From IMG/VR virus record IMGVR_UViG_3300042880_000230: 20,000 bases of DNA. One strand, given 5' to 3'. Shown here in pieces: positions 1 to 20,000 of the stretch. This DNA is from an uncultured virus (IMG/VR IMGVR_UViG_3300042880_000230) (Duplodnaviria; Heunggongvirae; Uroviricota; Caudoviricetes). A model generated the notes under the pieces. The model saw only the letters and a program-made list of their open reading frames with translations, searched no databases and was not told the origin of the DNA. The translations under genes and the position numbers were made by a program. The stretch's first letter is position 1. Each line of letters starts with the position of its first letter.

Positions 1-91
1 GACATGAGATGCTCTAGCACCTGTGTTCGCCTGTCCGGCCTATGAGCGCAATTGATGAGATAGACTCTGTCGAACAACTCTGTTAGTGTCT

Positions 92-283
92 TCATGGGTC
101 TACTGCTTCGCCACCGCCTTCTTCGCCACCGCCTTCTTCGCCACCGCCGCCTGAACCGCTAGGCAGGGGTGCAGAGCTTGATCCGCCAGAAGAGTAGACG
201 GAACTGCTAGACTCCGACACCGAGGTGCTAGTCTTTGCAGACCCGCTGGAAGACGAGGGGGAGGATGAGGAGGATGATGTCAT
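92..283 (-). CDS. Ser/Gly-rich low-complexity microprotein (63 aa)
   Basis: ATGA overlap with the upstream gene; 25 of 63 residues are Ser, using mixed codons; EEGGG repeats. Confidence 0.55.
   Translation of the reverse strand: MTSSSSSSPSSSSGSAKTSTSVSESSSSVYSSGGSSSAPLPSGSGGGGEEGGGEEGGGEAVDP
106..148. repeat. 15-bp tandem repeat, about 2.9 copies (GGGEE)
   Basis: cttcgccaccgcctt at 106-120 and 121-135, partial copy at 136-148. Confidence 0.95.
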
Positions 284-1758
284 TCGCGTGGGTAGGCAGA
301 GTTGATAAATGCTTCGTTAGCTTCAAACTGTTGGGCAGAGCGCGACGGGAATCGCATCCCGACAAATCCTTTCCGAATAGCCGTCAGTCGCACGCACACC
401 TTTGCAGGTCTCCTGCCGAATCGGTAGCACTCGACAATCAGTTCGCCGCGAACCACCCTAGCGCATCGCACTGGACCAGTATCTCCTGACGCACTACACA
501 CTTCGACAGTATCGTACTCGCAGACTGCCATGAAGCGAGGATCGACAGGCACCCGCGAAATCCGACCCTTGATCTTTAGCGTCATCACGTCATCGAACCT
601 AACATCAGGCATCTCATGCGCGAAGAGGGCAGCGTAGCCTGACGCGAGCCACGGTGCAGGCACGATAGCAGTGGACTTGTCAGAGCCGAGCGATGCAGAG
701 CTAGTGCTGGAGCCGGACGAAGAAGAGCTAGAGCCCGGGTCTATCTTGATCCCTGTTAGTGCAGGTGCAGCAATGACCCCTGTATGCCGCTGCTGTAGCC
801 ACAGAACGTCAGCGCCTGCCTCGTCTTTGACCGTGATGAACTCCGCTAGTAAAACGTGTCCGGTAGTTTCGGTGTTCACTGGAGCGGACGTAGTCGATAT
901 GATAGAGCCGCCCGTTGGTGTGTAGTAGTTGACCGTGATGCCGTTGATAGTCCTGCTAGCTTTAGAGAAATTGATCTGTGCGTAGACGCTGTGGCTAGCG
1001 GATACTGTAACGGATGCCCCGCCGATACCTACTTCCCGCAGCGAAGCAAACGGGATGCCTGTGACGGTAGCGCTAGCCCAGTCAGCGTAGGACACCCTGC
1101 CCGCAGAGAAATAGGCAGTGGTTGCGCCTGTCATCGCACCCGCAAACCCTAGCTTCCAGTCTAGCGTAGCCGCCTGCGGGCTATCTTCGTACACTTCCAC
1201 GCTAACAATCTTCACGGCTGCGCCCGACGCTACAAGCTCAAACTTGTTGAGCGCCACTAGCATCTCGCCGTCCTGTGCGGTTGGCGCTGTACCGTTTGCA
1301 AGGAATGCAACTTCAGCCCGCAGGGCCGACACACGAAGCCAGGAAATGTAAGTACCCGGCGCTAGCACTTTGTAGGGCGCGGGCGTAGCACTCAGCTTCG
1401 TATAGGTAGTAGACGGGTCGCCCTCATGCACCATAACGACAGAGCGCTCTATGCTGTGCGATCTCTGGCTAGTCGCGCCTACCGGGCGCTGCCGCAGCCA
1501 TTGCGATTGACCGTCCGTTAGGCTGACGCCGAACACGCCGCCTCGGTCTACGACGTAAGGGAAGAGGGAGCGGCGGGCATCAAGCGCCTCCTGCGCTAGC
1601 TCAATCACTACCATACTGCCTTCACGGCGAAGGCGAATGCCCGGTCCTTCCGAGACGCCTAGGCTGTTAGCGCCGACCTTGTTTACCTCCGCCGCAATCC
1701 GATTGAGCGCCGCAGCCAGTTCCGGCTGACCTGTGATTTTGAAGGTTCCTAGTGCCAT
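280..1758 (-). CDS. Putative tail-tip protein with poly-Ser linker
   Basis: ATG at 1758 (MALGTF), 4 nt after the upstream TAA, is preferred over 1815. Beta-rich body, GSSSSSSGSSTSSAS linker, then a distinct C-terminal domain starting KSTAIVPAPW. Confidence 0.65.
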   Translation of the reverse strand: MALGTFKITGQPELAAALNRIAAEVNKVGANSLGVSEGPGIRLRREGSMVVIELAQEALDARRSLFPYVVDRGGVFGVSLTDGQSQWLRQRPVGATSQRSHSIERSVVMVHEGDPSTTYTKLSATPAPYKVLAPGTYISWLRVSALRAEVAFLANGTAPTAQDGEMLVALNKFELVASGAAVKIVSVEVYEDSPQAATLDWKLGFAGAMTGATTAYFSAGRVSYADWASATVTGIPFASLREVGIGGASVTVSASHSVYAQINFSKASRTINGITVNYYTPTGGSIISTTSAPVNTETTGHVLLAEFITVKDEAGADVLWLQQRHTGVIAAPALTGIKIDPGSSSSSSGSSTSSASLGSDKSTAIVPAPWLASGYAALFAHEMPDVRFDDVMTLKIKGRISRVPVDPRFMAVCEYDTVEVCSASGDTGPVRCARVVRGELIVECYRFGRRPAKVCVRLTAIRKGFVGMRFPSRSAQQFEANEAFINSAYPRE

Positions 1759-1762
1759 GGCG

Positions 1763-2536
1763 TTAGTAAATGTCGGCGTCCCATCCAGCCCTACCTGACA
1801 GCTTCCAGCTTTCATGCAAGCGAAGACCGTTGCCGACGGTCTCCATCCGAGCAGTAGACTTGAGCCATGTGCGCGTGCCTACGTTAGGGAGGAGGTACGA
1901 AGCTGGCGGTGTGTCGATCTTGCCTAGAGATGCTAGGTTGATGCCTTGCGTTATCTTCGTGCGGTCAGGGATGGTGCGAACGCGGGTGTAGACTAGCCCT
2001 GGGCTATAGTAGGACTTGATTCCGGCCTTGGGGTTAGGCGCTCCAGAGATGAGCGGTCGGAAGCCTAGGAACTCTCCTGTCTTTTTGTCGAACTCGGCAC
2101 CATTCTTCCACGTTGCAGGATCGGCAGGCTTGCCAGCAAACTCCGGGAAGTCAGGGTGCGTCTCAATAGGCTCGCTGTCTGTGGCTCCTTCCAGCGTGTA
2201 CGTTACAAGCTCACCGTCCTCGCCTGTAGCCTGCTCCGGCATACCCGGCCCATTGCTGCCGGGAGAAGGCTCTGGATCGACTCCTTCAAAATTCACGCTA
2301 ACAGTCGCCAGGTAGCCTTCGATCCTCCTGATGGTAGCCTTCTTCCGCATAAGCCAGGAAAATTCTGGATGCACTTTGAGCGCCCTGACTAGCCTAATGG
2401 CATCGTCGTACTTGCAGGTGTACTCAAGCACGGCGCTGCCTACTCCGCTGTCGTCGATCTCTATGCTATGGTCAACGCCTTCGACTAGCGTTGCCAGGGA
2501 GCTACCAATGTAGAGGATTCTGCTAGTGTCTGCCAT
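1763..2536 (-). CDS. Putative distal tail / tail-tip protein
   Basis: Immediately downstream of the tape measure gene; contains EPIETHPDF. Function inferred from synteny. Confidence 0.55.
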   Translation of the reverse strand: MADTSRILYIGSSLATLVEGVDHSIEIDDSGVGSAVLEYTCKYDDAIRLVRALKVHPEFSWLMRKKATIRRIEGYLATVSVNFEGVDPEPSPGSNGPGMPEQATGEDGELVTYTLEGATDSEPIETHPDFPEFAGKPADPATWKNGAEFDKKTGEFLGFRPLISGAPNPKAGIKSYYSPGLVYTRVRTIPDRTKITQGINLASLGKIDTPPASYLLPNVGTRTWLKSTARMETVGNGLRLHESWKLSGRAGWDADIY

Positions 2537-2543
2537 AATGTTA

Positions 2544-4925
2544 TCAGGTTGAAGTCACGCGGAGAACTGACGTATTGCTAGTATTTTTCGAGATGCGTTC
2601 AAGCTCGGAAAGGATAGCCCTGTCCAGAGTGCCGCCTGCGGATGCAGGAGACGTGCCGCCTAGCAGAGTATTAGTCTTTGCCGAGTTCTCGTTGATAGAC
2701 TGCAAAGTCGTTAGCTGCTGGCGCTGAACTTCCGCAGGGTCTTGCTTGCCCGCAAAGAATCCGCCGCCACCGCCCATGCTCTGCAAAGAGTCCGCCACGC
2801 CTTGAAAGCTAGGCCCGTTCTTAGCTTTATCGGCACGGGCATTTACTAGCCGTTCTGCAAGCGATGCTGCTTCGATGTCGCTAACGCCTGTAGCTTCGAT
2901 GATAGAACGCTTCTCGCGTAGCAGGTCGATCTCGCGCTGTATCCGGTCAGCCGCAGTAGTGTCGCCCGCAGCCTCGGCTTCTGCCGCTGCGATGCTGCGC
3001 ATAATATCCTCCTTAGACTGCGCCTGCTTCTTTTCCTTGTCCATCTGCTCGGAACTTTTCAGAGCTTGGCTAGGGTTCCACTTGGTAGGGTCGAACTTGA
3101 AGAAAGATGATAGTCCGGCGGCTGGCCTGATGTCCTTCTGCGCATTCTTTGCCCACATCGCAGCCTCCGCGTTGCGCTTGTTCTCGTAGAAGATTCCACC
3201 GAGCGCATCCTTAAGAAGGTTAGCGTCTACAGCTAGCTCGGCGTAGTATGATTTGGTTTTACCGCTGGCACCTTCAATGCCTTCGGCCCTCGTTCTCTCT
3301 AGCACTTTCTGGAATTGCTCAAGAGCCTCTGTGCTTTTACGCATTTCCTCTTCAGTCTTCGATTCCAGAATAGTCTTGTTAATCGCAACGAACTGCTCGC
3401 GCAGGGCGCGGAGATTAACGACCGCACCTCCGTCGCTATTATTGCTCATTGCCGATATTGCAGAACCCATAAGACCTACCATTTGCGTAAGCCCGTCCAC
3501 TGCGGATTTGATAGGACCGCCAGCCATAGACCCTATGCGAACCTGAAGGTCGTCTACGGCATTGCCTAGCTTTTTCGCACTGCCTGCCGCAGTATCACCG
3601 ATAGCTTGCTCAAACCTAGCGCCAGCGCCCGCTGCGCTTTCCATCTTAGCCTGCATAGCCCCGAAGCTGCTAGCGTTTGCGGCTAGGATAGAAGAGATGT
3701 CAAGGTTTTCCGCTCCGAAGAGTTTTACTAGCGTGCTTTGGTCAAGCCGCGCTAGCTTTTTCATGATGTCTTCAACCGAGTTTAAGCTAGGCGATAGCTC
3801 ATACGCGGCCACGCCTGCGCTAGCCATAGCCTCTTCCGCGTCCTTGGTAGGCGCTACCAGCCTAGCAAATATTGCGCCTAGACCGCGACCAGCCATGCCG
3901 CCCCTGACACCGTTGTTTGCCAAGATTGCCAGTGCCGCCGACACTGTCTCAATCGGGATTTTCATCGCGGACGCAACAGGCGCAATGAACTTCATGGACT
4001 CACCCATGTCGTCGATGGAAGCAGGCGATGCGTTAGCGGCTGCCGTTAGCGTGTCGATAATCCGTGTCGTGTCTTTTGCGCCTAGCTGAAACGCCGACAT
4101 AGAGGCGACCATAATTTCGGCAGCACGGCCCATCTGAATTTCTCCCGCCGCCGCTAGGCGAAGCGTAGCTGTTAGCGAGCCAGCAGCCTGCTCGGCGCTC
4201 ATACCTGCCGCTACTAGCTCCCGCAGTCCTCCCGCCTTTTCGATAGAGTTGAAGGCGTTACTTCCTGACAGAGCGGCTTCCCTAAGAGTATTGAATGCGG
4301 CGGACGTTTTGTCGATCTCACCTACCGCAGCGACTCCAGCCATAGCCTGCTCAAAGTCCATAGCGTCCTTGATCGTGTCCCGCATAACCGCGCCAGTCGC
4401 CGCAAGCACAGCCGCAGGAGCGGCGAATCTTCCTAGCATCGACAGATTTAGCATGCCGCCTCCACCCGCGCCGCCACCCGCGTCAGCGACGCTAGCGCTA
4501 CCGCCGCTCATGACCGCAGTGCGGTGCCGAGACGTTACGCTCTGCTGCGAGCGCTTAGATACGGAATTGATAGCAGTAGACGCTCTGTTAGCATTAGCGG
4601 CGACAAGGGCTAGAGAGGACGCCATCGTCGCCAGCACCTGCTCTATCCCTGCTAGCTTACTCGCGGACGAGGCTAGCTGACTTGCAGAGTTTGAGCTAGC
4701 CAGCAGCTTCTTGTCAAGATCCCCGGTCGCTGTAGCCATCGCGTTCATCCGCTTGACGATAGCTTCAGAAGGTAGGCTTTTTTCCAGCCGGGTGAACATC
4801 GACATGACCCGCGAAGTACGGCCCTCCAGCCTAGCCAATCCCATGTCGATCTGCTTCAACCCGGCCAAAGCATTGCTAGGGTCGGAGAGGAAGTCAATTC
4901 CTACATTGGATTGGGTAGTACTCAT
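2544..4925 (-). CDS. Tail tape measure protein (TP901-type core)
   Basis: 793 aa, Ala-rich, helical; DFEQAMAGVAAV, GESMKFIAPVA, LANNGVRGGMAGRGL, KLFGAE. Confidence 0.95.
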   Translation of the reverse strand: MSTTQSNVGIDFLSDPSNALAGLKQIDMGLARLEGRTSRVMSMFTRLEKSLPSEAIVKRMNAMATATGDLDKKLLASSNSASQLASSASKLAGIEQVLATMASSLALVAANANRASTAINSVSKRSQQSVTSRHRTAVMSGGSASVADAGGGAGGGGMLNLSMLGRFAAPAAVLAATGAVMRDTIKDAMDFEQAMAGVAAVGEIDKTSAAFNTLREAALSGSNAFNSIEKAGGLRELVAAGMSAEQAAGSLTATLRLAAAGEIQMGRAAEIMVASMSAFQLGAKDTTRIIDTLTAAANASPASIDDMGESMKFIAPVASAMKIPIETVSAALAILANNGVRGGMAGRGLGAIFARLVAPTKDAEEAMASAGVAAYELSPSLNSVEDIMKKLARLDQSTLVKLFGAENLDISSILAANASSFGAMQAKMESAAGAGARFEQAIGDTAAGSAKKLGNAVDDLQVRIGSMAGGPIKSAVDGLTQMVGLMGSAISAMSNNSDGGAVVNLRALREQFVAINKTILESKTEEEMRKSTEALEQFQKVLERTRAEGIEGASGKTKSYYAELAVDANLLKDALGGIFYENKRNAEAAMWAKNAQKDIRPAAGLSSFFKFDPTKWNPSQALKSSEQMDKEKKQAQSKEDIMRSIAAAEAEAAGDTTAADRIQREIDLLREKRSIIEATGVSDIEAASLAERLVNARADKAKNGPSFQGVADSLQSMGGGGGFFAGKQDPAEVQRQQLTTLQSINENSAKTNTLLGGTSPASAGGTLDRAILSELERISKNTSNTSVLRVTST

Positions 4926-8395: not shown

Positions 8396-8425
8396 AGGTG
8401 CTAGCGTTAGGTGTGTTCGGTTAGT

Positions 8426-9219: not shown

Positions 9220-9261
9220 AGCAGAGTTAGCTTGGTTAGTGTTAGCGGTTAGCCGCGAAAG

Positions 9262-9290
9262 ATACTAGCGCTGAAATGCAGCACTTGCAA
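9262..9290 (-). promoter_or_regulatory. Candidate sigma70-like promoter for head-completion/tail genes
   Basis: Minus strand TTGCAA-N17-TAGTAT immediately after the terminator, 42 nt upstream of the ATG at 9219. Confidence 0.55.
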
Positions 9291-9328
9291 ATGAAAGTCC
9301 CGCCCTCGGTAATTCCAAGGGCGGGACT
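9289..9328 (-). terminator. Intrinsic terminator after the capsid gene
   Basis: 11-bp perfect stem agtcccgccct (9296-9306) / agggcgggact (9318-9328), followed by TTCATTT on the minus strand, about 20 nt after the capsid stop. Confidence 0.75.
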
Positions 9329-9347
9329 GTAGTCATACTGCTAGAGA

Positions 9348-10988
9348 TCAGGCAGCGAAGTTAAACCCTAGAAACACAGTTTTTTGCGTCAAGGATGGAG
9401 TTTCCTTCGGCATGAAGGCGCGGCGGAACGAAGCGATGACGCTCTTCGTCTGCTTCTTCTTGTCCATGTCGGTCTCGACCGTAAACCCACGGCGGACGCC
9501 GAGATACCAGCTAGGCTTGTGGACGATAAGCATAGAGCCTTTCGTAGCCGTGACGCCGTCGTAGACGCCTGTTGCGTTAAGATCCTCCCGGACACGCTCG
9601 GAGACGATAATAGGCACTCCGTAGATAACACCCGCCACACCAGTCAGGATACGCGCTAGTGCAGGATTGCCCACCTTTTCTGCGGTCAAGGTTTCTGCTA
9701 GGCCGACAAGGTCGTTATAGCCGGAAGGGCCTGCGACAATAACCAGATCGCTGCGCCGAATACCCCATTTACCCAAGACTTTTAGAGCGCCTAGGATGTT
9801 AGCGTTAGTAACGCCACCACTCCAGTTGCCCGTAAGCGTAGCCGTCAAAGCCCGCTTACGAAGACCGAGCCACAGCTTGGACGGGGCGGTAGCCGCAGTG
9901 CCCGTGTCCATGTGAGTCGCTGTGGTATCTCCGTTGATGATAGCGTCTTCCAGAGCGTCCGCTGCGCCGAGGGCTAGGTCGTCTTGGAGCATAGGCAGGA
10001 TAGGCACGATAGCATCTTCGTCCGCCTCGTAGGAGTAGTCAGCGATGCCGATGAGCTTCTGCGCGTCTAGCGTGACAAGCCCGGTGCCTGGTTCAGACCC
10101 GACAGGATCAGTTCCAGGAGCTTCCGAACCTAGGCGGTATTGCGTCCGCGAAGTCTTGAGCGGGAGCTTGTAGGTGTCCGTCGGCATAACGACTTCTTGC
10201 GAAATCATAGCCGCAGCGAGCGGACTGTCCAAGTACAGACGCATCTGGAGTTCGCTAGACAGATCGCTAGGGATAAGCTCTGCACCAGTCGCCGCGCCGC
10301 CAGTAGTCAGCGTCTTCGCACGAAGGCCATCTAGCGCTTTAGTCCCGGAGGCGATAGCGCGGTCGAACATCTTAGCGTCGATGCCTTCGCGCTGGTTAGC
10401 TCCGAGGCAGACGTTGAGAAGCTCCTTCTGCGCAACCGTTAGGTTGCCCTTCCGGTGAACAATCACGTCAGTACCGAAGTCGGTCGGGAAGACGTTCTTG
10501 CTGTTAGTGCGCTGCGAGTTGAGCGCCGTCGTCAGTGCGCTGGCTAGCTGCTCCGCAGTAAGAGCGCCCTTTTGCGCTTCAGCAATCGCGGCTTTGATAG
10601 CCTCGGCAGTGTCAGCGGCGTTGCCCGCAGGAGTGAATGCGGCTAGCGCATTCTTCACAGCGGTCTGCACGTCAGCGAGTTTGACGTGGCCTTGGTTAGC
10701 TTCTTCAATCGCCTTGAGGATAGCAGCCTGATCGACGCCTTTCGCGGCGAGGGTATCGGCTAGGGCCGAGGAGACCATGCCTTTAAGCTGGTCGGCGGTC
10801 AGAGCCGTGTCGCCTTCGTCTTCAAGAGCGAGGGCTTCGGTAACGAACTTCTCGTCCAGCGTGAGCTTTTCAGCTTCTGCTAGGGACTTGAGCGTGGCGA
10901 GTTCCGCCACATCGTCAGGAGACAGTTGCAGGGCGGTCTTGGAGAGCAAGACGGCGAGGCGCTTGCGTTGAGCATTAGTTAGTTTCAT
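9348..10988 (-). CDS. Major capsid protein, HK97 fold, with long N-terminal scaffold (delta) domain
   Basis: About 225 aa of helical Ala/Lys/Glu-rich N-terminus, then KTLTTGGAATGAELIPSDLSSEL, VTLDAQKL, EDAIINGD, GVIYGVPIIVS, typical of HK97-like capsids; HK97 protease upstream. Confidence 0.93.
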   Translation of the reverse strand: MKLTNAQRKRLAVLLSKTALQLSPDDVAELATLKSLAEAEKLTLDEKFVTEALALEDEGDTALTADQLKGMVSSALADTLAAKGVDQAAILKAIEEANQGHVKLADVQTAVKNALAAFTPAGNAADTAEAIKAAIAEAQKGALTAEQLASALTTALNSQRTNSKNVFPTDFGTDVIVHRKGNLTVAQKELLNVCLGANQREGIDAKMFDRAIASGTKALDGLRAKTLTTGGAATGAELIPSDLSSELQMRLYLDSPLAAAMISQEVVMPTDTYKLPLKTSRTQYRLGSEAPGTDPVGSEPGTGLVTLDAQKLIGIADYSYEADEDAIVPILPMLQDDLALGAADALEDAIINGDTTATHMDTGTAATAPSKLWLGLRKRALTATLTGNWSGGVTNANILGALKVLGKWGIRRSDLVIVAGPSGYNDLVGLAETLTAEKVGNPALARILTGVAGVIYGVPIIVSERVREDLNATGVYDGVTATKGSMLIVHKPSWYLGVRRGFTVETDMDKKKQTKSVIASFRRAFMPKETPSLTQKTVFLGFNFAA

Positions 10989-11746: not shown

Positions 11747-12049
11747 TTACTTCTGAACTTCAACAGGCTGCTTGCCCGTGTTAGCCTTGCGGATGCTGAC
11801 CTGCGTTCCGACGCCTTCGTAGCTGAACGCCACAGTAGTATCGTACCCTGCACAGCCTCCGACGGACATAGACACAATCAGGATGATAACCGCTAGCACC
11901 AGTGACAGGACGCCTGCTTTTATAGCGGAGTTCCCGCCATGGAACGAAGACCGCTCGGCATGGTTGTCGCAGTTAGCGCACTCTTCGCGGAACTCGCAGA
12001 ACCCGCAATCGCATTCCGGCTCCGTAGTCGTGTGAAGGTCGGTTCTCAT
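11747..12049 (-). CDS. Putative lipoprotein / spanin-like protein with Cys-rich N-terminus
   Basis: CDCGFC..ECANC, then hydrophobic GVLSLVLAVIILIVSM ending in lipobox-like VGG-C; ATGA overlap with the holin-like gene. Confidence 0.45.
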   Translation of the reverse strand: MRTDLHTTTEPECDCGFCEFREECANCDNHAERSSFHGGNSAIKAGVLSLVLAVIILIVSMSVGGCAGYDTTVAFSYEGVGTQVSIRKANTGKQPVEVQK

Positions 12050-12267
12050 TTCGGCACCCCCGTCTTGTCTGCGTCCTTGCTAGCAAATCCGCTGAATGCG
12101 GCACCGAACCCGGCGACGCTAAGGCTGATCCGTTCGATGGATAGTGGAGCGCCGTTAGACACAGCGTACAGATGCTCGACGAGATTAAGCAGCGCCCCCA
12201 GGAAGGAAACGATACCGCCTAGCAGCGTCTTCTTGCTGGCGAGAAAAGGTTTCAGAGATTTAATCAT
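12046..12267 (-). CDS. Putative holin (73 aa, two hydrophobic segments)
   Basis: KKTLLGGIVSFLGALLNLV and ISLSVAGFGAAFSGFA helices, charged C-tail SKDADKTG, position upstream of the endolysin candidate. Confidence 0.6.
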   Translation of the reverse strand: MIKSLKPFLASKKTLLGGIVSFLGALLNLVEHLYAVSNGAPLSIERISLSVAGFGAAFSGFASKDADKTGVPK

Positions 12268-12297
12268 GCGGGACCGTAACGCACCGAGGGCCGCTAG

Positions 12298-12543
12298 TCA
12301 ATGCTCTGCGCCAGGGTCAGGCAATGGACCTGTCATAGCGTCAACCTCTGCCCGGAAAGGGCACTGGCGGACGTGGCACCGCTTAACAGCATCCTTGAAC
12401 CCGTACAGCCTGCCGACAAGGCTGCTCAGTGCCGTGATCTTCTTGTTCTGCGTGCGAGTATCCAGCCACAGTTTGCCCACGGCAACCGCCTGAATGGTTA
12501 GCACGGCGATGGTGAATTTGTCGTAGGAGGTCAAGCTGTCCAT
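12298..12543 (-). CDS. Small membrane-anchored protein of the lysis cassette
   Basis: Likely ATG at 12543 (MDSLTSYDK). One hydrophobic segment, a basic coiled-coil-like stretch, then CHVRQCPFR; lies upstream of holin-like and endolysin-like genes. Confidence 0.5.
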   Translation of the reverse strand: MDSLTSYDKFTIAVLTIQAVAVGKLWLDTRTQNKKITALSSLVGRLYGFKDAVKRCHVRQCPFRAEVDAMTGPLPDPGAEH

Positions 12544-12556
12544 GGCGTCCCCTATA

Positions 12557-13408
12557 TCAGAAAGGTGACAAATCCACAAGACCCTGCCGCAAAGAATGTT
12601 GCGCGGAAAACCCGGTGCGGGCGGCTTTCTCCGTCGATGCTAGCGAACGCCTGACTCCGCAATCCTGTGTCGGCGTTACGCGGATCGAAGACTTAGAGCG
12701 CGTCAGCATGCAGACCGCAGCCGCTAGCGTACCTAACGTAGTAGCTTTCCCTGTACCGACGTTATACACTCCGGCTCCGTGAAAGTCGAATGCGTAGTGG
12801 ATGATGGCTCTTACCACGTCTCTGACATGGACGAAGTCGCGGCTGACATCTGGAGAGCCGTGGATGTAGATAGGCTCGCCGCTAGCCGCTGCCCGAAGCA
12901 TAGCAGGAACGACGCCTCCTAGCTGGCTAGGGCCGTACACGTTAAAGAACCGCAGAGCCACAGCACTCCGATTCCTGCCAGCGTACTCCTCGACTGCCTG
13001 CTCGCCTAGCCGCTTAGTGTGCCCGTAGATGCAGGCAGGCGCTAGTCGGTCAGACTCTCTGCTAGCCCATCCCTTTCTGACTTCTCCGTAGACTGCGGCG
13101 CTGCTAGCAAAGACGACCCGCCTGACGCGAGCCTTGCGGGCGGCTTCTAAGACCGTGCGTGTGCCGTCTACGTTGACCGCCGCACAGCGCGAGGGATTAG
13201 CCAGCGCCTCGCCTACGCTAGAGACGGCAGCTAAGTGAATGACGGTGTCGGCACAAGCCACCGCCCTCTCCACTGCCTTTCGGTCTAGGATGTCGATGCC
13301 TCCCGGCAGGGCTAGGTCTAGCGCCTCTGCGTCCGCTAGATTTTGCAAGGCGTGCAACAGGTGCGTGCCTATGAATCCGGCTCCGCCTGTAACAATAACC
13401 TTTCGCAC
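12557..13408 (-). CDS. NAD-dependent nucleotide-sugar epimerase/dehydratase (extended SDR, GalE/WcaG-like)
   Basis: VTGGAGFIG Rossmann motif, VIHLAA, FASSAAVYG, catalytic YGHTK (YxxxK), LRFFNVYGP, RDFVHVRD, YNVGTG. Confidence 0.95.
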   Translation of the reverse strand: MRKVIVTGGAGFIGTHLLHALQNLADAEALDLALPGGIDILDRKAVERAVACADTVIHLAAVSSVGEALANPSRCAAVNVDGTRTVLEAARKARVRRVVFASSAAVYGEVRKGWASRESDRLAPACIYGHTKRLGEQAVEEYAGRNRSAVALRFFNVYGPSQLGGVVPAMLRAAASGEPIYIHGSPDVSRDFVHVRDVVRAIIHYAFDFHGAGVYNVGTGKATTLGTLAAAVCMLTRSKSSIRVTPTQDCGVRRSLASTEKAARTGFSAQHSLRQGLVDLSPF

Positions 13409-13414
13409 AGCCTT

Positions 13415-14050
13415 TTATGCTAGGATTTGCGCTATGCGCTCTGCGGTTAGTATGCCGACCGCTTGCAGCAGTTCAAGTCCGCTAGTAACACGCGGGTCGT
13501 CTGAGAATAAAGCAGAAGGCCAAGTTGATAGAGTTATGACTAGAGCGCGGACGGTAGGATGTGCGCTGACCGCAATAGCCTCTTTTTCGGAGCTAGTAAA
13601 AACCTCCCAGAATGCTGCGCTGTTAGCCCAAATTTTGCGCGTAGATGCGGCCAGCTCCTCCGCAGTCATATTCCGCACTTCCCAATCACGCTCTACTCGA
13701 TCAGAGTGCCACACTAGCAGAGGTTCCGCAACCATGCCTGAAATAACTTCAGGCGCGGCTAGCTTGACTAGCGGCACTACTTCAGGGGGAGTCCACAGCA
13801 GGCCAGGATATGCCGACGGATCTCGATTGATAGGCTCGAGCTGCGGCGTATCTGGAGCCGCGTCCTCCGACAGCACAGGGTCAGGAGCATTCCATGGTGC
13901 CCGAGGATCTTGATTCCATGGTGCCCGAGGATCTTGTGCGGTAAACATACCCGGCGGCGTAGCCGCTAGCCAGTCAGGCTCGCCGCAAGGTGTCGCCGGA
14001 AGATCGACGAGCTGGAGTGTGCTGGAAATTCCAAAGGTCTTCATAAGCAT
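13415..14050 (-). CDS. Fibre-associated protein (possible fibre assembly chaperone)
   Basis: ATG at 14050 lies 1 nt after the fibre TAA and is preferred over the listed 14080 start. The C-terminus FTSSEKEAI..DDPRVTSGLELL..GILTAERIAQIL resembles small proteins commonly encoded right after phage fibres. Confidence 0.55.
   Translation of the reverse strand: MLMKTFGISSTLQLVDLPATPCGEPDWLAATPPGMFTAQDPRAPWNQDPRAPWNAPDPVLSEDAAPDTPQLEPINRDPSAYPGLLWTPPEVVPLVKLAAPEVISGMVAEPLLVWHSDRVERDWEVRNMTAEELAASTRKIWANSAAFWEVFTSSEKEAIAVSAHPTVRALVITLSTWPSALFSDDPRVTSGLELLQAVGILTAERIAQILA
13889..13936. repeat. Perfect 24-bp tandem duplication (encodes QDPRAPWN x2)
   Basis: attccatggtgcccgaggatcttg at 13889-13912 and 13913-13936. 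Confidence 0.97.
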
Positions 14051-14051
14051 G

Positions 14052-17000
14052 TTAGGAGCCGATTGCCAGTTCTTGAGCAAAAATTACAGCCTGCCATCGC
14101 CAAGTCTGACCAGATACCCCGGTGCAGTTGACCTCAAGGGAGTCGGTACCGTCCGAGACTGTAACGGAGATAGATGTTGTCGCTGTGACGTCTGCTCCTA
14201 CTGTAGTTACGGCTCCGACTAGGCTGGATGTTCCCGCCACGTTCTTGTACGAAACCTGACGCATATACCGCGCCACGTCTCCCGCAGTGCTGGTTCCAGT
14301 AATCAGTATCAGAGCCTGTCCTACTGTATCCGTAGGGATGGACATCCCTGGCCGAGTTACTAGAGTCCATACAGATGTCCAGTTAGGCCCTACGCCAGGC
14401 TCTGTCGTAGCTCCGCTAGTGTGCGGTTGGCTTACATAACTCCCCTGCTTGTTGTAAACCCGCACTCCAGTACCGTAGAACGTGCCTGTCGTCCACTTCA
14501 CGCCCCAGGATTCGGAAAGAGGGACGGATGCGGCGGACCCCACACTGACTGCATGAAGTACAGTTGTTCGCGACAGGCTATCGCGTGACGTTGCCGAGAT
14601 AAGACCGCTATTGGCCACAGCGATACCTTGCCCAGGTCGAATACGCAGCGTTTCGACTAACTGGTTTTGAGTACTGCTTCCGCCAGCAGAGGCTGGCGCT
14701 GTACGCGCTATAAGCTCTCCACCTACCCCGCTACCGCACCCTCGAGACGAATCCAGAGTAAAAGATACCGACGCCAGTGAGGAATCTGCGACTGTTCCAG
14801 AGTTAATTGATATAGTCTGTGCTGAAATAACCGAAGTGTCAGAGACGCCGAGTTGCAGATTATTTGCGGCTCGCCTTCGGATATACAGGTCTGGCGAGCC
14901 AGGTACAGTAGTAGAGTTAGACCAAGATACGTTATAGTCGCTCCTGAGCCTGAGTCCTGTTACTGAAGAGTTAAGCTGCGCCACGGATAGGACGTTGCAC
15001 GCCGTAATTGATGTCGCGCCAAACTCTGCTGCTACCCCAGACCCCGAAATATAGTTACCATTAGCACCTACCTGAAGACGTAGTATGGTCTGCCATGCAC
15101 CTCCAGAAACTCGTCCTTGAAACGCTAACTGAGATGTTGGATCAGCAGCACCGCTTGCGTTTAGGCTGTATGACCTCCACTCCGTAACTCGAGACTCCGC
15201 TGGAGTTGACGCCCACCCAGCCCCGAGCCACGCTATAGCAGGGCTGTTCTGATTAAGGACAGCAGTAGATGCAGTAGTGTTTCGCAGCGTCAGGTACGGA
15301 GTAATGCCAGCCCCTATCGCTTCTGCGTTACCTAGCGTGATCGTGCTGCCGGAAACAGAAGAGTTGGTAACAGACTCAAACGCGCCCGCGTTGTTGTACT
15401 GAAGCTCTCCGGTGGCTCCGCCAGGTGTTCCTCCGCTTCCGCCAGCAGGCGCTGCCCACGTCCCATCGGCTCGTAGAAAATTCGTAGTGCCTCCACCGGA
15501 CGCAGGCGCTAGCCCTTTGACCGAGGTAGTAAACGTGTCTAGGACGGCGGTTGCGGCAGCACTATTTGCTGCTGTCATTAAGCTCTGCCCGGTAGCTGTG
15601 CTGTTAGAGATGTCAGCCGCCACTAGCGTTACAGTTCCGGTCTTGCCTGCAACAGAAAGCACGGGAGCAGTAGGATAGGACAGTGAAGTCCAGTTGCCGA
15701 TAGAGCTGCTAGGCTCGGCGGTAACGATGTAGACCTTACCATCGTCGCTCCTGATAGCCCAGTCTCCGCGCTGGCCTACTAATGCTAGCATCGCTGCTTG
15801 GTTAGCTACGGTGCCGAGATACTGACTGATGGCTAGGTCAGGAAGTTGCGCAGTATCCAGCTTCCCGCCTACCAGATCCGCTTTAGCAGACAGCGCCGTG
15901 TCTAGACCCGTAATCGTACTAGTAGCCTGTGTACCTGTATGGTTAGTGCGGCTTAACAGGTAGGCGTCCGTAGAGTTAGCGCTGAAATTGCTAGGGTTGC
16001 TGCTTGGGTAAGCGCCAATAAGCGTAAGCGTCTGCGCCGCCGTCTTCGACTCCCACACGTTAGTGCTTGCGTTTTTCACAAGCACCGCAACCTGACCGGA
16101 CAGGCTGTCAGTTACGTTATGCAGTTCGCCTAGCTCATACCCGTTGTCTACCTTAATGAAGAGACTGCCGACCGTAGCGTGGACGCGCTCGACATATGCT
16201 ACGCGGACGCCGTGCTGTGGAGCAGGAGGCTCGGTAGCTGTTAGTGTCCCTGCCGTAGAGGATAGGAACATGAGAGCGCCAGCCGTCAGCAGCGAGGTGT
16301 CGAGATTGTACATCGGACCCTGCACTTGGACAAATCCTTCCGCGCCAGCCGCAATCGTCTGCGACACCAGACCTAGCGTGCCTGCGCTAGTAGATTCCGA
16401 TGCAGCGCTAGCCAGACGGACTGCGACCCGGTTGCCTTGCGCTCCGCTAATGTAGACAACCTGACCTCGCGTCATTGTCAGGGCAGTGTCGTTATACACC
16501 CTAACGTACTGCTGCACCCCTAGCTTCAAGGTAACGGTCTCAATCCCGACTTCCGGCACCTTTTCACCTGAGTCGTAGCGCATAACGCCAGCGGACAGGG
16601 CGGTGGTCGGAGTCTGCGCAAGCACTAGCGCATCCGTAGAGACTGCGCCTGCGTCGCTTACGCTAGCTCCGCTGTTCTGAATAACTTTGCCCGTCGTTCC
16701 GTCGAATCGGACGATAGCGTTATCGGTAGAACTAGCAGGTCCGGTCACGTCGCCAGATGCTGCGGCGCTTGACAGCTTCCAGACGGTTTCCCACGAAGCG
16801 CCTGTCCCCGGCTCTGTAGCTAGCGCAGAGGTGTGTGCTGCCGTACAAAGGTAGGCGTTCCCGTCGTTGCCTACGACCGTGTCGAGGGCATACGCTACGC
16901 CGGACTGCCAAGCCGCACCGCCGTAGACCCTAACAGACACTGTCTTGGTCGTAGGGTTAAGCGATACCGTTCCAGCGCCCAGCACCGAAAATGTTAGAGT

Positions 17001-17480
17001 ATCGTCACGACCAGAGGCTGTGATGCTAGTGCTGCCTGCCGCCGCAACATACCGGAAGACGTTCGACGCATAGAGCGATGGCGCTGGAGGCGGAGCGCCG
17101 ATGTCGCTTGCCGGATTAGCCTGCAAGGTCAGACGCCCTAGCACAAAAACCGTCTTGATCCCGCCAGTGCCAGTCCCGCGAACTACGAGGTAGAACGTGC
17201 GCGACAGGATCGAAGGCGCGGACGGCAGCAGGTTAGTCTGCTCCGGCGTAAAGGATAGCAGGTGCGGGCCGGAGCCTAGCGTCCCGACGTAGGTAACGGT
17301 AGCTAGCGGGTCTTCTCCTAAATTCGCGTTCTGGTAAATCTCCGCAACCAGTTCCTCGAAAGTGCCGTTAGAGAGGTCTCCTTCGCAAGACAGGATGAGT
17401 GTGTTAGCGTTGTACGCTACGACCGAGACCGGGACTACGCCGGAGGTTGAAAGGGCTAGGTTGACGGTCTGCGGTTCCAT
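14052..17480 (-). CDS. Large mosaic fibre / virion decoration protein (1142 aa)
   Basis: Ser/Thr/Gly/Ala-rich. Typical phage fibre modules: GDVTGPASSTDNAIVRFDGTTG, RTNHTGTQ, VLSVAGKTGTVTL, NFLRADGTWAAP, PGGATGELQYNNAGAF. Also two CBM5/12-like modules and a capsid-cement/head-fibre-like segment. Confidence 0.8.
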   Translation of the reverse strand: MEPQTVNLALSTSGVVPVSVVAYNANTLILSCEGDLSNGTFEELVAEIYQNANLGEDPLATVTYVGTLGSGPHLLSFTPEQTNLLPSAPSILSRTFYLVVRGTGTGGIKTVFVLGRLTLQANPASDIGAPPPAPSLYASNVFRYVAAAGSTSITASGRDDTLTFSVLGAGTVSLNPTTKTVSVRVYGGAAWQSGVAYALDTVVGNDGNAYLCTAAHTSALATEPGTGASWETVWKLSSAAASGDVTGPASSTDNAIVRFDGTTGKVIQNSGASVSDAGAVSTDALVLAQTPTTALSAGVMRYDSGEKVPEVGIETVTLKLGVQQYVRVYNDTALTMTRGQVVYISGAQGNRVAVRLASAASESTSAGTLGLVSQTIAAGAEGFVQVQGPMYNLDTSLLTAGALMFLSSTAGTLTATEPPAPQHGVRVAYVERVHATVGSLFIKVDNGYELGELHNVTDSLSGQVAVLVKNASTNVWESKTAAQTLTLIGAYPSSNPSNFSANSTDAYLLSRTNHTGTQATSTITGLDTALSAKADLVGGKLDTAQLPDLAISQYLGTVANQAAMLALVGQRGDWAIRSDDGKVYIVTAEPSSSIGNWTSLSYPTAPVLSVAGKTGTVTLVAADISNSTATGQSLMTAANSAAATAVLDTFTTSVKGLAPASGGGTTNFLRADGTWAAPAGGSGGTPGGATGELQYNNAGAFESVTNSSVSGSTITLGNAEAIGAGITPYLTLRNTTASTAVLNQNSPAIAWLGAGWASTPAESRVTEWRSYSLNASGAADPTSQLAFQGRVSGGAWQTILRLQVGANGNYISGSGVAAEFGATSITACNVLSVAQLNSSVTGLRLRSDYNVSWSNSTTVPGSPDLYIRRRAANNLQLGVSDTSVISAQTISINSGTVADSSLASVSFTLDSSRGCGSGVGGELIARTAPASAGGSSTQNQLVETLRIRPGQGIAVANSGLISATSRDSLSRTTVLHAVSVGSAASVPLSESWGVKWTTGTFYGTGVRVYNKQGSYVSQPHTSGATTEPGVGPNWTSVWTLVTRPGMSIPTDTVGQALILITGTSTAGDVARYMRQVSYKNVAGTSSLVGAVTTVGADVTATTSISVTVSDGTDSLEVNCTGVSGQTWRWQAVIFAQELAIGS

Positions 17481-17512
17481 TTGCCTGACTGATACTCCCG
17501 CCGCAGGCTAAG

Positions 17513-18097
17513 TCAAGGCATCGCAGCCGCTTCCTCCCACAAAGGCAGGTCATCCGCGTACAGCGCCCGCACGATGTCCCGTGTTAGCGCGGACGGCTCT
17601 TCGATGTCGTTATCGCACTGCACCTTGTACAGCTTGCAGCCTTCCGGCAGCATAGCCCATTGCGGTCTGATTAGCTCGTCACAGGAGAGCGGATCTTGAG
17701 CTAGCCCCCACCGCACGAAATCTCCGAATGACTTGCCTGACACGTCGCGGAAGCGCAGTGGGCAGCGAGCCGTGAATGCCGGGGAGGAGGTTCGATAGAA
17801 CCAGACTTTCCGCAGCCGCACTAGCGGGTCTTCTACTAGCGCGAACAGTTGCACGCCTTGCAAATTTTCGATGGGAGTGGGAGGTGTCTGCGTCTCAGAG
17901 AAGGAGCGCCCCAGCACGTTACGCAGGCCCGCTAGCTTCCTAGCATAACCGTTCGTATCCGGGCTGGAGTAGGTGCGGACGCACCATGCTTTACCGCCAT
18001 CCACATGGAAAGGCGCTAGGGCGCATCCGCGTCCCGAGATTGCGGCGGTAGTTTCACGCCATAGGTGCGACTTGGCAGGAAGAGCGTATGCGTGCAT
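17513..18097 (-). CDS. Sulfotransferase (Sulfotransfer_2)-like protein, degenerate
   Basis: FALVEDPLVRLRKVWFY resembles FxFVRDPxxRLxSxY; SFGDFVRW, DELIRPQ and VRALYADD resemble the family C-terminal half. No recognisable PKxxxTS 5'-PSB motif. Start uncertain. Confidence 0.45.
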   Translation of the reverse strand: MHAYALPAKSHLWRETTAAISGRGCALAPFHVDGGKAWCVRTYSSPDTNGYARKLAGLRNVLGRSFSETQTPPTPIENLQGVQLFALVEDPLVRLRKVWFYRTSSPAFTARCPLRFRDVSGKSFGDFVRWGLAQDPLSCDELIRPQWAMLPEGCKLYKVQCDNDIEEPSALTRDIVRALYADDLPLWEEAAAMP

Positions 18098-18770
18098 AGG
18101 TGTCTTGGATTAGAGCGGCGATGTCCTGACCGTGCGGCATGCCTAGGATGTCGCTAGAACTTCCCGACTGAACGAAGTACGGACGGCACCCTGTCAGCAT
18201 TGTACCGTGAGACGCTAGCCACTGGTCATACGGTCTAAAGGTCTGCGGCACGATACCGGAAGCGATTTCGGTTTCGCAGGGCACTGACACTAACACATCG
18301 TCGAAGACGTTGCGGTGGTAAAGGATAGCGTGCGTGGTGACCATTCCCTTAACCGTAAAAAGCTCGCCGCAGTCGTGCGGAAAAACCCGGAGGGCGGGAG
18401 TTGCCGGACGCCAGTTAGCGCGACAACCTCCAAGGTTTACCGTGTTCCAGTGCGGTGCCTTAGCTAGTGTCTTGAAGAGGAAGTCGTGGAGCTGTCTGGA
18501 GTTGACAGGCAGCGCATCGTCTTCCAGCACTAGCACTCCTTCAGCGTCCTCCGCCGCTGCCATAGCAATCGCCCTTCGATGGGACGCGGCGCAAGCCAGG
18601 TCGCAGAGCGCGACTCGCTGCGGGCCTTGTATGTTAGGGCTGATCTGTACGCCTGGGATAAACTCTAGATCGAAGATTGCCGTTAGGCCGCTAGCGTCCC
18701 ACGCCGCCTCCAGTTCCTCGCGCCTGTCCTCGCGGCTAGGCAGGCTGATGCAGAAAGTCCTGAGCCTCAC
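18054..18770 (-). CDS. Glycosyltransferase, family 25-like
   Basis: FCISLPSREDRR N-terminus, ACAASHRRAI, LVLEDDA (acidic donor-binding motif), TTHAILY, PYDQW, VQSGSSSDI fit the GT25 pattern. Confidence 0.8.
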   Translation of the reverse strand: MRLRTFCISLPSREDRREELEAAWDASGLTAIFDLEFIPGVQISPNIQGPQRVALCDLACAASHRRAIAMAAAEDAEGVLVLEDDALPVNSRQLHDFLFKTLAKAPHWNTVNLGGCRANWRPATPALRVFPHDCGELFTVKGMVTTHAILYHRNVFDDVLVSVPCETEIASGIVPQTFRPYDQWLASHGTMLTGCRPYFVQSGSSSDILGMPHGQDIAALIQDTYARIRSSCQVAPMA

Positions 18771-19429
18771 ACCGTCCAGTAGTTGACGGCGGCTTGCGCC
18801 ACGACGAGTTCAAGATAACCGTTAAACGGTGCGGCGGTAGTGCGGTCGTAGGCCGGGACTGTGCTGAGGCATTTAACGTGAAGGAACGCGCCAGGTTTAG
18901 CGACGCCTTGCAGCGTGTCGTACTTGTGGGTGCCGCCGCTTAGATAGTAGACAGGCTGAGGCGATCCGTCAAATGCTAGGCAAGCGCCTGGCATTAGCCG
19001 AAGCCCTGTGTTCAGCGAGGCAGGGTCGGAGATGAGAGAATCCGACATGCCCCACATCATGATGTACGGCGTGCGGTTGTACATCGACAGCAGGACGGGA
19101 GGTCGGGAGGTGCCGACAACCGTCTGCCCGTCAGGGTCCAGACCTGACGAATTCCACCCTCCATAGCAGACCCAGTAATTGTGAGGGTGCGTGGTCGAAG
19201 TTGTTAGCGGATTCAGCGAGATAGTCAGCATGTTCCGCAGCGGGTCCAGCGCGGCAGTAGTTCCGTTAAGCGGCCAGAACTTTCCGCTAACAACACGGTC
19301 TGCGCCTGGGAAGCTAGACGAGGACTTTCCTCCCGGCTCGTTTGAGATGGTGTAGTTGCCTGCGGCGCTAGGGATTTCCGGCGTTACGACGGCTCCTGCG
19401 GCAACACGAAAGAAAGGCTGTACGTTCAT
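18767..19429 (-). CDS. Hypothetical protein (220 aa)
   Basis: 4-bp ATGA overlaps with both neighbours; Gly/Pro/aromatic, beta-rich looking; no recognised motif. Confidence 0.7.
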   Translation of the reverse strand: MNVQPFFRVAAGAVVTPEIPSAAGNYTISNEPGGKSSSSFPGADRVVSGKFWPLNGTTAALDPLRNMLTISLNPLTTSTTHPHNYWVCYGGWNSSGLDPDGQTVVGTSRPPVLLSMYNRTPYIMMWGMSDSLISDPASLNTGLRLMPGACLAFDGSPQPVYYLSGGTHKYDTLQGVAKPGAFLHVKCLSTVPAYDRTTAAPFNGYLELVVAQAAVNYWTV

Positions 19430-20000
19430 TGGGAGATGCGTGTTAGGGATGCTAGATCCAGACTGCGGGTTTGAATAATAGCGTCAGGGTTAGCTGGCAC
19501 CGCTACTAGACTGATCTCGAAAAGGTAGGCTTTGCTGATCGTGCGCCCGTCCGGCTCGTACAGCCAGATGCCGCCGATAGACAGGGTGCGCAGCGACTTC
19601 TCCATTAGCGAGAACCTAACGTGTTTCATCTCAGGGGAGTTAGACACCTGGCCTTGCACGAACAGGCCGCGCTCGTCTTCCCTGACAATCGTGTAGTGCC
19701 CTGCGATATTCTCGACGATCTGGCGGTGATCGACTAGCATAACCGGGTTCATCATGAAGTCGCGGATAGTCTCACGGAAAGCGCCGACCTGAATGTTATC
19801 GCCGTGCCTGTCTGACGCCGTGACATGTGCCCAGGTGCTAGCGTACCCGGCGAAGCTCACGTTCTGGTAGTCCACTACCTGCCCGGTCTTGTCGTCTTTG
19901 ACCGCAACACCCTTCGCGTCCGTATCCAGGCACTGCCTGCGATTAGCTAGCTCGACGCGGCGGGACTCATGCGGAGTGTCTGTAATAGCCAGGGCGCAGG
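19426..20000 (-). CDS. HK97-family prohead (capsid maturation) protease, 5'-truncated by window edge
   Basis: Motifs FAGYAST, DRHGDNIQVGAF, PVMLVDH, REDERGLFVQG, LSIGG, EISLVAVPANPDA. The frame stays open upstream of the listed GTG (19875) to the window end (..CALAITDTPHESRRVELANRRQCLDTDAKGVAVKDDKTGQV). Confidence 0.93.
   Translation of the reverse strand, partial: CALAITDTPHESRRVELANRRQCLDTDAKGVAVKDDKTGQVVDYQNVSFAGYASTWAHVTASDRHGDNIQVGAFRETIRDFMMNPVMLVDHRQIVENIAGHYTIVREDERGLFVQGQVSNSPEMKHVRFSLMEKSLRTLSIGGIWLYEPDGRTISKAYLFEISLVAVPANPDAIIQTRSLDLASLTRISQ

Follow-up and report, generated by a model that had tools for sequence, protein, structure and literature searches.

Glycosyltransferase genes and a divergent sulfotransferase-family gene interleaved with the virion genes of an uncultured freshwater tailed phage: a possible system for tailoring virion glycans

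Virion O-glycosylation in the mycobacteriophage Che8 and its relatives was reportedly described by Freeman et al. in 2023. PMC11256854 and PMC13313380 likewise cite virion O-glycosylation by phage-encoded enzymes in the cluster F1 (Che8-type) mycobacteriophages; as cited in the former, phage sugar coats have been shown chemically only in a few actinobacteriophages, where they alter antibody recognition, and the latter, a study of Rhodococcus phages, takes a glycosyltransferase and a methyltransferase encoded by the same phage to indicate that the virion is glycosylated. Here we describe a stretch of 20,000 nucleotides from an uncultured virus of the class Caudoviricetes (IMG/VR record IMGVR_UViG_3300042880_000230; hereinafter, the window, meaning this stretch at its full length), in which a glycosyltransferase of the GT25 family (GT238), a sulfotransferase-family protein (p194) and a nucleotide-sugar epimerase are encoded between the prohead protease and the major capsid protein, together with a Ser/Thr-rich fibre, and in which a second GT25 gene (GT25b) starts directly behind genes for Ser-rich proteins at the end of the tail module. 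The explanation that we put forward, tentatively and as somewhat short of probable, is that phage-encoded enzymes located in two places of one late gene string tailor the glycans of the virion, by O-glycosylating proteins of the fibre and tail tip in the cytoplasm, ahead of assembly. We are led to this interpretation because genes for soluble sugar enzymes appear to be coupled in translation to those for virion proteins, recur in linkage with fibres or Ser-rich tail proteins, and are partnered with methyltransferases or sulfotransferase-family proteins.

All long open reading frames (ORFs) of the window are on the minus strand, as are all window genes described below, and constitute a single structural gene string of a tailed phage in which 6 of the 24 proteins scanned match a Pfam family. 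In the direction of transcription, the string encodes the prohead protease, p220, GT238, p194, the fibre, p221, the epimerase, three small proteins of 93, 73 and 100 amino acids, a 202-amino-acid protein, the capsid protein, adaptor/neck proteins, the tape measure protein, p257, p511 and p63. The inserted block begins at the gene for the prohead serine protease (19426..19998; PF04586, E = 7.2e-17; phrog_80, E = 2.2e-25), the 5' end of which is outside the window, and continues with the genes for p220 (18767..19429; 220 amino acids), GT238 (18054..18770; 238 amino acids), p194 (17513..18097; 194 amino acids), the fibre (14052..17480; 1142 amino acids), its partner p221 (13415..14080; 221 amino acids) and an intact extended short-chain dehydrogenase/reductase (SDR) predicted to be a nucleoside diphosphate (NDP)-sugar epimerase (12557..13408; 283 amino acids). 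The junctions between these genes are tight, with overlaps of 4 nucleotides at both protease/p220 and p220/GT238, 44 nucleotides at GT238/p194 and 29 nucleotides at fibre/p221, and gaps of only 32 nucleotides between p194 and the fibre and 6 nucleotides between p221 and the epimerase. A first-pass annotation of this DNA had described these genes as co-oriented, overlapping or nearly touching, and following the prohead protease; all of them are indeed present in this arrangement, and the GT25-like transferase, the intact nucleotide-sugar epimerase and the Ser/Thr-rich fibre that it had named are each borne out by the comparisons reported below. Between positions 8000 and 20000, promoter- and terminator-like sites show no excess over shuffled sequence, and the sole terminator with a long stem (14 pairs) in this region is located at 9296-9328, 3' of the capsid gene. 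The block genes are real genes as opposed to chance ORFs because their order is kept in relatives and the codon differences in the epimerase gene are mostly synonymous. None of p220, GT238, p194 and the epimerase contains a hydrophobic segment (Kyte-Doolittle 19-residue mean of at most 1.25), so that these proteins should act in the cytoplasm; by this measure, GT238, p194 and the epimerase are soluble.

The match of GT238 to the GT25 family in Pfam is marginal (PF01755, 24.3 bits against a cut-off of 24) and limited to residues 51-98, and PF01755 is on record for 5 of its 20 homologues. A profile built from 17 homologues matches the mimivirus protein R655 (PDB 9crz, E = 3.2e-5) and human COLGALT1 (E = 2.1e-4 to 3.3e-4), and more weakly a bacterial GT25 enzyme (8xlz, E = 1.5e-3); all these E-values are weak, and the matches are confined to positions 3-117 of 241 (the N-terminal 105-114 positions), the C-terminal half being particular to the GT238 subfamily. 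Within the aligned region, E83, D84 and D85 are invariant in the 17 sequences and align with the LVLEDD stretch of R655 and the LVFEDD stretch of COLGALT1. Judging by these profile matches and the shared acidic motif, GT238 is a GT25-family transferase (of the GT-A type), with a predicted activity of hexose transfer from a uridine diphosphate (UDP)-sugar. A metagenome scan with the GT238 profile added 5 loci, all from the same three lineages; among 185,579 species genomes, there was no close prophage relative of GT238 (the best match is 31% identical) and no relative of the epimerase.

p194 has no Pfam match of its own, even at an E-value of 10. Its homologues number 3 by word index and 13 representatives by a full HMMER profile search, which reaches the proteins P0032 (1.4e-9) and P0034 (4.8e-7); these two of the 13 family members match PF03567 (Sulfotransfer_2), with 32.2 and 55 bits, respectively. 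Alignment of the p194 group with three canonical phage PF03567 proteins using hhalign yielded a probability of 98.3% (E = 2.6e-14, 73 columns). An AlphaFold model of p194 with a predicted local distance difference test (pLDDT) score of 79.7 gave no Foldseek match at E <= 0.001; a Foldseek-independent structure search (VIA) with the same model recovered the sulfotransferase fold in 23 of the 25 chains with Z of at least 2, the best of these being a heparan sulfate 6-O-sulfotransferase, with a Z of only 5.3 and a root-mean-square deviation of 3.8 over 135 residues. In addition, a language-model atlas ranks a viral Sulfotransfer_2 cluster first for p194 (0.93), which we take as a lead only. By the hhalign comparison, homology between p194 and the PF03567 sulfotransferases of phages is solid.

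The activity of p194 is a different matter. In the hhalign motif columns, VEDPLVRLRKVW against VRNPYDRLVSCW, the canonical V-R-N-P-x-D-R-L-x-S is aligned with V-E-D-P-L-V-R-L-R-K of p194, so that Glu89 and Lys97 occupy the places of the Arg and the Ser in the RxPxxRxxS motif. In known sulfotransferases, this Arg and Ser bind the 3'-phosphate of 3'-phosphoadenosine 5'-phosphosulfate (PAPS). The Glu is found at the Arg position in 11 of the 13 members of the p194 family, none of which has the Ser (Lys or Ala is present instead). Because the Arg and Ser are replaced, we consider it quite unlikely that p194 is a true sulfation enzyme, and the conservation of the Glu suggests a changed ligand or function, not decay. 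The 5'-phosphosulfate-binding loop of PAPS-dependent sulfotransferases, PKxxxT/S, follows strand 1; in p194, the loop VRTYSS (strand-loop-helix 36-46 of the model) could replace it, with Arg41 substituting for Lys, although this is a by-eye reading in a region where the MAFFT columns are unreliable. The designation of this protein as sulfotransferase-like in the first-pass annotation thus holds with respect to the family, as seen from the hhalign probability, and is doubtful with respect to sulfation, for which the residues that contact the 3'-phosphate are replaced. A scan of viral contigs with the p194 family found close relatives only. A literature search found no paper joining a phage sulfotransferase, a glycosyltransferase and a tail fibre, and a search on bacteriophage sulfotransferases and virions found no virion sulfation among the titles and abstracts listed. 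In one relative of the window, a 202-amino-acid ORF upstream of the portal gene (L002:1004-1612) shows a weak match to the phage sulfotransferase family phrog_3347 (E = 1.3e-4); as a second sulfotransferase, it finds no support in the hhalign comparison with the p194 family (probability 0.8%) and remains a lead.

The epimerase scores 170.4 bits against a cut-off of 20.9 for PF01370 (E = 5.7e-50) and also matches phrog_540 (E = 3.4e-59). The GGAGFIG stretch of the GxxGxxG NAD site is readable, as are SSAAVYG and YGHTK, which carry the Ser, Tyr and Lys catalytic residues. The protein reaches no NCBIfam equivalog cut-off (for GalE, TIGR01179, 112.9 bits against 262.3), and its nearest solved chains, MoeE5 and UDP-Glc/GlcNAc 4-epimerases, are mostly C4-epimerases. 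Compared with the relative L002, the epimerase gene differs by 26 synonymous and 7 non-synonymous codons, and the small number of the latter implies purifying selection. L002 has an extra 135-amino-acid ORF just upstream of its epimerase gene.

The fibre (phrog_2824/26941) consists of 23.7% Ser and Thr, a content exceeded among the window proteins only by p63, the others ranging from 9 to 18%. It contains a CBM5/12-like module at about 190-234 (CBM_5_12, 22.7 bits, below the cut-off of 26.2), with a second copy detected by an internal match at about 995-1040. The middle domain of the fibre (about 510-630) matches 477 deposited phage records at up to 64% identity; nearly all of the proteins concerned are annotated as minor tail proteins, from phages of Mycobacterium, Arthrobacter, Gordonia and Microbacterium. 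There is no other long fibre gene behind the tail genes in G001, a near-identical contig that extends the window beyond its left end; p257, p511 and p63 are the last proteins of the tail module. The presence of a minor-tail-protein domain and the lack of another long fibre suggest that the 1142-amino-acid protein is probably a tail fibre and not a head fibre, its gene being located outside the tail module. The gap between the protease and capsid genes therefore probably contains an inserted fibre module of the tail type, which is not evidently a head decoration. Relative to its L002 counterpart, the fibre shows 79% identity over the first 240 residues and 40% over the middle, and the tips are unrelated. 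The sole match of p221 is to phrog_25252, on its C-terminus (E = 3.5e-5), and at the p221 position L002 encodes a protein of the ConA-like lectin type (PF13385, E = 1e-18) that is unrelated to p221. We propose that p221 is a tip piece or an assembly factor, swapped together with the C-terminus of the fibre as a putative receptor-binding cassette.

The first gene after the protease encodes p220, a family-less, jelly-roll-like protein that matches nothing in Pfam, PHROGs or NCBIfam and has 7 matches among 5.8 billion clusters, one of which is the window's own sequence. It is predicted to be all-beta, the model being weak (pLDDT 61) and giving generic jelly-roll matches only, with Z up to 6.5. 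We considered p220 as a cupin or 2-oxoglutarate hydroxylase acting as a partner of a collagen-type GT25, given the atlas rows for cupin, PhyH and TauD (template modeling scores of 0.31-0.40), and rejected this candidate because the family contains no invariant His or Asp, the model of p220 itself being a generic jelly roll. No other gene of the block varies as much as that for p220, which has three alleles (in the window, G001 and L002) that are 66-74% identical beside near-identical flanks. Such hypervariability suits an exposed virion protein or one in contact with the host, and p220 is probably either surface-exposed on the virion or host-interacting.

The second locus is at the other end of the window, where the gene for p511 (280..1815), a distal tail protein, is followed by that for p63 (92..283), a Ser-rich protein of 63 amino acids, both of which are candidate acceptors. 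The poly-Ser linker of p511 (about 354-380) has 16 Ser or Thr in the 30 residues starting at 354 and is followed by a conserved C-terminal domain of 130 amino acids; in p63, Ser and Thr account for 44% of the residues. Directly after p63, the window contains the first 31 codons of GT25b (1..95, the codons occupying bases 95-3), identical to the start of L168:363-1040, where the remainder of the gene could be read; L168 is the same contig as G001, which shares 96% of the sampled words of the window and comprises 34.4 kb, or an estimated 39% of the genome, with 14.9 kb of it beyond the window. GT25b matches PF01755 with 27.7 bits against the cut-off of 24. The next gene encodes a 471-amino-acid protein with an FkbM-type methyltransferase domain that scores just under the cut-off (22.0 against 22.7 bits) and that also matches phrog_8156. 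Between this methyltransferase-like gene and the replication genes lies L168:2598-4262, which encodes an AAA+ ATPase of 554 amino acids (PF00004; phrog_8638, E = 3.8e-112).

A scan of viral contigs with GT25b identified 7 loci with 35-39% identity (L169-L175). In three of these (L169, L173 and L174), as in the query, GT25b is directly behind a p511-type C-terminal domain (42-50% identity) with a Ser-rich linker; L169 and L173 also encode a Ser-rich ORF, longer than p63, that shares a motif with the p63 N-terminus, whereas L174 encodes a 473-amino-acid protein with very long poly-Ser runs. In control loci, only 1 of 1105 ORFs (78 unrelated phage loci, with the ORFs called by our own greedy script) reaches 8 Ser in 12 residues. 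A methyltransferase gene adjoins GT25b or is two genes off in L169, L170 and L171, and in L174, which is on the same contig as L084, a locus of the GT238 subfamily, a canonical sulfotransferase (PF03567, 35.8 bits) is encoded between the poly-Ser tail protein and GT25b. The pairing of predicted sulfotransferase-family and GT25 genes seen in the window therefore recurs in L084. The poly-Ser tail proteins, which had been named among several possible acceptors, are the best lead, given that GT25b starts right behind them, at base 95.

Conservation of gene order extends to the first locus as well. The succession of protease, p220, GT, p194 and the fibre N-terminus is kept at 35-95% protein identity across relatives, namely, G001/L159, the L002 group (L001, L002, L082, L160 and L161) and L083/L162/L163, with identities in the last of these groups of 59-62% for the GT, 35-40% for p194 and about 36% for p220. 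The linkage is also seen with unrelated fibre families in two other phage groups. In L084, a gene for a collagen-like tail fibre with a GPAGADGAT repeat (8229-10528) has a stop codon that overlaps the start of a GT238-subfamily gene, and in L085-87, a GT238-subfamily gene comes directly after that for a 757-amino-acid fibre, which has a homologous C-terminal domain, and before the neck and tail genes. L084 is from a temperate phage, with an integrase 2 kb away; its contig further encodes a nitroreductase-family ORF, a second GT25 and tail proteins in which the poly-Ser and Gly/Ser/Asp stretches are very long. G001 is 100% identical to the window from about 18457, in the middle of the GT238 gene, onwards, and upstream of this point only 51-90% identical, such that a recombination breakpoint is apparent inside the GT238 gene near 18457.

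In the scenario that we tentatively favour, the SDR epimerase would turn a UDP-hexose, or its N-acetylated or uronic form, into the C4 epimer in the cytoplasm of the infected cell, and GT238 would place that sugar on hydroxyls of a virion protein encoded by the same transcript, most likely the fibre and possibly p220. GT25b and the methyltransferase-like protein would act on the poly-Ser linker of p511 and on p63. p194 would work with GT238 and may bind another nucleotide or be a non-catalytic helper; it probably does not use PAPS because the 3'-phosphate-binding site has been re-tooled. The benefit to the phage could be the shielding of flexible linkers and fibres from proteases, or altered adhesion. 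A more elaborate version, unlikely in its full form, is that freshwater tailed phages possess both a module of Ser-rich acceptors, a GT25 and a methyltransferase and a fibre-linked GT25 with a p194 whose donor site has been rebuilt for a compound other than PAPS, which together would make methylated or otherwise capped O-glycans on tail fibres. If this were the case, virion glycosylation would exist outside the actinobacteriophages, as far as our searches found, GT25 enzymes would act on Ser-rich protein acceptors, and the sulfotransferase fold would have acquired a new chemistry.

Several observations weigh against virion glycosylation. Apart from the lost Arg and Ser of p194, the fibre has no poly-Ser tract, and in the 37 loci of the GT238 subfamily there is no general link to Ser-rich ORFs, L084 and some doubtful or distant cases being the only ones. 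Distant homologues of GT238 (24-32% identity, L089-L094) occur within sugar islands in large phages, or have replication or integrase genes as neighbours, so the family is not confined to structural modules. According to the Pfam description, the bacterial GT25 enzymes typically act on lipo-oligosaccharide (LOS). Among the 7 GT25b loci, L170-172 have no Ser-rich neighbour and L175 has only a doubtful one 5 kb off; furthermore, the loci in which Ser-rich genes and GT25b are adjacent are homologous modules that may represent one inherited synteny and not independent events, a caveat that applies to all the synteny evidence. The nucleotide identity of the epimerase gene to that of L002 is 95.8%, compared with 63-84% for seven other genes, and this pattern points to a recent exchange of this single gene between co-occurring phages, independently of its neighbours. 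The exchange implies that the epimerase has not co-evolved with the other enzymes, which weakens the picture of one fixed pathway; even so, the donor-supplying enzyme could well be interchangeable. Finally, short pieces of the fibre, p194, GT238, capsid and tape-measure genes are present at a depth of 2-6 in four river RNA libraries, and epimerase contigs in these libraries, at a depth of 10-17, continue into L002-type sequence; because these contigs are assembled and may derive from DNA carry-over, they are evidence of neither timing nor transcription. The pathway of donor synthesis and transfer in late genes that the first-pass annotation had envisaged is supported as regards the late structural string and the solubility of the enzymes and is weakened as regards the epimerase, which does not co-evolve with the set, and the linkage to structural genes is likewise mixed, GT25 genes recurring beside fibre and Ser-rich genes and distant GT238 homologues occurring elsewhere too.

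The main rival explanation, which we regard as somewhat unlikely, is that the enzymes modify a glycan of the host envelope, such as the core of lipopolysaccharide (LPS) or LOS, the capsule or a wall polysaccharide, that is recognized by the fibre, thereby blocking superinfection or preventing progeny from sticking to debris. Under this explanation, the genes would travel with the fibre since the receptor and the receptor-modifier must match, so that the linkage to the fibre fits it as well as it fits self-modification. PF01755 is described by Pfam as an LPS biosynthesis family, PHROGs files the matches of GT238 under 'moron, auxiliary metabolic gene and host takeover', and some relatives are found in settings compatible with modification of the host, such as sugar islands and the vicinity of integrases, or, as L084, in a temperate phage. 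The location of the genes in the late structural string, with overlapping starts and stops and no excess of promoters or terminators, argues otherwise because expression would come only minutes before lysis. Moreover, membrane enzymes such as a flippase or a bactoprenol transferase are lacking, the four proteins examined being devoid of hydrophobic segments, and neither the window nor G001 shows an integrase, although, with G001 covering about 39% of the genome, this absence applies to the window and G001 and not to the whole phage. Modification of the host also leaves the adjacency of GT25b to Ser-rich virion proteins unexplained, and the best solved relatives of GT238 are protein-acting or viral (COLGALT1 and R655), ahead of the bacterial GT25, with the reservation that the E-values are weak.

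Glycosylation of the phage DNA for evasion of restriction, as in the T-even phages, would be in line with the name 'glucosyltransferase' that PHROGs assigns to the matches of GT238; we consider it highly improbable given that neither the window nor the adjoining 14.9 kb shows a gene for the synthesis of a hypermodified base and that the genes are located among those for the virion, not those for replication. The T4 DNA glucosyltransferases belong to CAZy families other than GT25. It appears rather unlikely, too, that there is no common pathway at all and that separate accessory genes, functionally unrelated or decayed, have collected in the gap between protease and capsid as a site where insertions are tolerated. 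The mosaicism of the region is what could be expected of such a site: the breakpoint near 18457, the three p220 alleles, the swap of the fibre tip together with its partner, the exchange of the epimerase and the extra ORF of L002 all attest to it, p194 has lost the canonical cofactor residues, and the same gap accommodates three small membrane-type ORFs and an unrelated 202-amino-acid protein. A collection of unrelated or decaying genes is harder to reconcile with the order p220-GT-p194-fibre that is kept down to 35-60% identity, with the conserved Glu of p194, present in 11 of 13 members and indicative of changed function and not decay, with the purifying selection on the epimerase, and with the reappearance of a sulfotransferase-family gene next to a GT25 gene in L084.

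The remaining genes of the window fit a tailed phage. The HK97-type major capsid protein (9348..10988; TIGR01554, E = 2.1e-16) has an N-terminal extension of about 200 amino acids that is rich in Ala and Lys, shows a weak linker-histone match (E = 7.4e-4) and is probably a fused scaffold or delta domain; distant relatives of this capsid protein (25-30% identity) are found in T5-like phages and one Microcystis phage. The tape measure protein is encoded at 2544..4925. Between the epimerase and capsid genes are the three small ORFs (11747-12579), of which p100 has a strong hydrophobic segment (Kyte-Doolittle value of 2.76) with a lipobox-like V-G-G-C at its end, the segment of p73 is borderline and p93 is weakly hydrophobic, and, downstream of these, the 202-amino-acid protein (phrog_3000; 11133-11741), with an H...S-x-G-C stretch that, we presume, resembles the active sites of L,D-transpeptidase-type enzymes. 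Together, these small ORFs and the 202-amino-acid protein may form a cassette for lysis or membrane functions in an unusual position. PADLOC found no defence-system match among 10 proteins.

This is a phage of lake and river waters: at least half of the sampled words of the window were found in 5 sequencing runs, all of them lake or freshwater metagenomes, 2 of the 5 being possible sources. Neither the 8-kb block nor GT238 or p194 has a match among 50,697 deposited phage records. A literature search on glycosylated phage tail fibres found, by title and abstract, no phage-encoded system of fibre glycosylation. If lake phages glycosylate their fibres and tail tips themselves, virion glycosylation would be widespread, and this would matter for host range, for the stability of particles and for the engineering of phages. 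The predicted parts, namely, two GT25 enzymes, short Ser-rich candidate acceptors such as p63 and a sulfotransferase-fold protein with a conserved Glu in place of Arg, are small and soluble, and should be amenable to expression in Escherichia coli and direct assay.

Comparison with better-known sugar-modifying systems helps to place the locus. Lysogenic conversion of the Gtr type involves a membrane flippase and bactoprenol transferase partners, and a position beside the integrase gene; in contrast, the enzymes described here lack hydrophobic segments, and there is no integrase in the window or the further 14.9 kb of G001 (together, about 39% of the genome). The bacterial GT25 galactosyltransferases of LOS (8xlz, 251 amino acids) belong to the same Pfam family as GT238 and are, like it, small, soluble, single-domain proteins of similar length, but the match to them is weaker (1.5e-3) than that to protein-acting relatives, and GT238 is encoded in a phage virion operon and not in an LOS locus. 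With the PAPS-dependent carbohydrate sulfotransferases of PF03567, p194 shares a homologous core and probably the fold class, and canonical members of this family are encoded beside phage GT25 genes, as in L084; unlike these enzymes, p194 has Glu89 and Lys97 for Arg and Ser, is short and has no direct Pfam match. COLGALT1 (GLT25D1) and R655 are the best solved relatives of GT238, with the EDD motif aligned, and in L084 the GT gene is paired with a collagen-like fibre, whereas COLGALT1 acts on hydroxylysine, there is no hydroxylase here, and the fibre of the window has no collagen repeats. R655 itself, once annotated as an LPS enzyme, is now given as a putative collagen glycosyltransferase in PMC9546862. 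The closest functional parallel seems to be with the Che8-type and other actinobacteriophages, which resemble the present phage in the presence of glycosyltransferase and methyltransferase-like genes in a tailed phage and in the minor-tail domain shared by the fibre. In the Che8-type phages, according to PMC11256854, the glycosyltransferase genes lie towards the right genome end and apart from the genes for structural proteins, whereas here they are interleaved with the latter; here, too, the enzymes are of the GT25 family and are accompanied by a sulfotransferase-family protein, an epimerase and Ser-rich candidate acceptors, in an uncultured freshwater phage. Should the virion proteins indeed be the targets, the system would be a variant on the virion glycosylation of actinobacteriophages.

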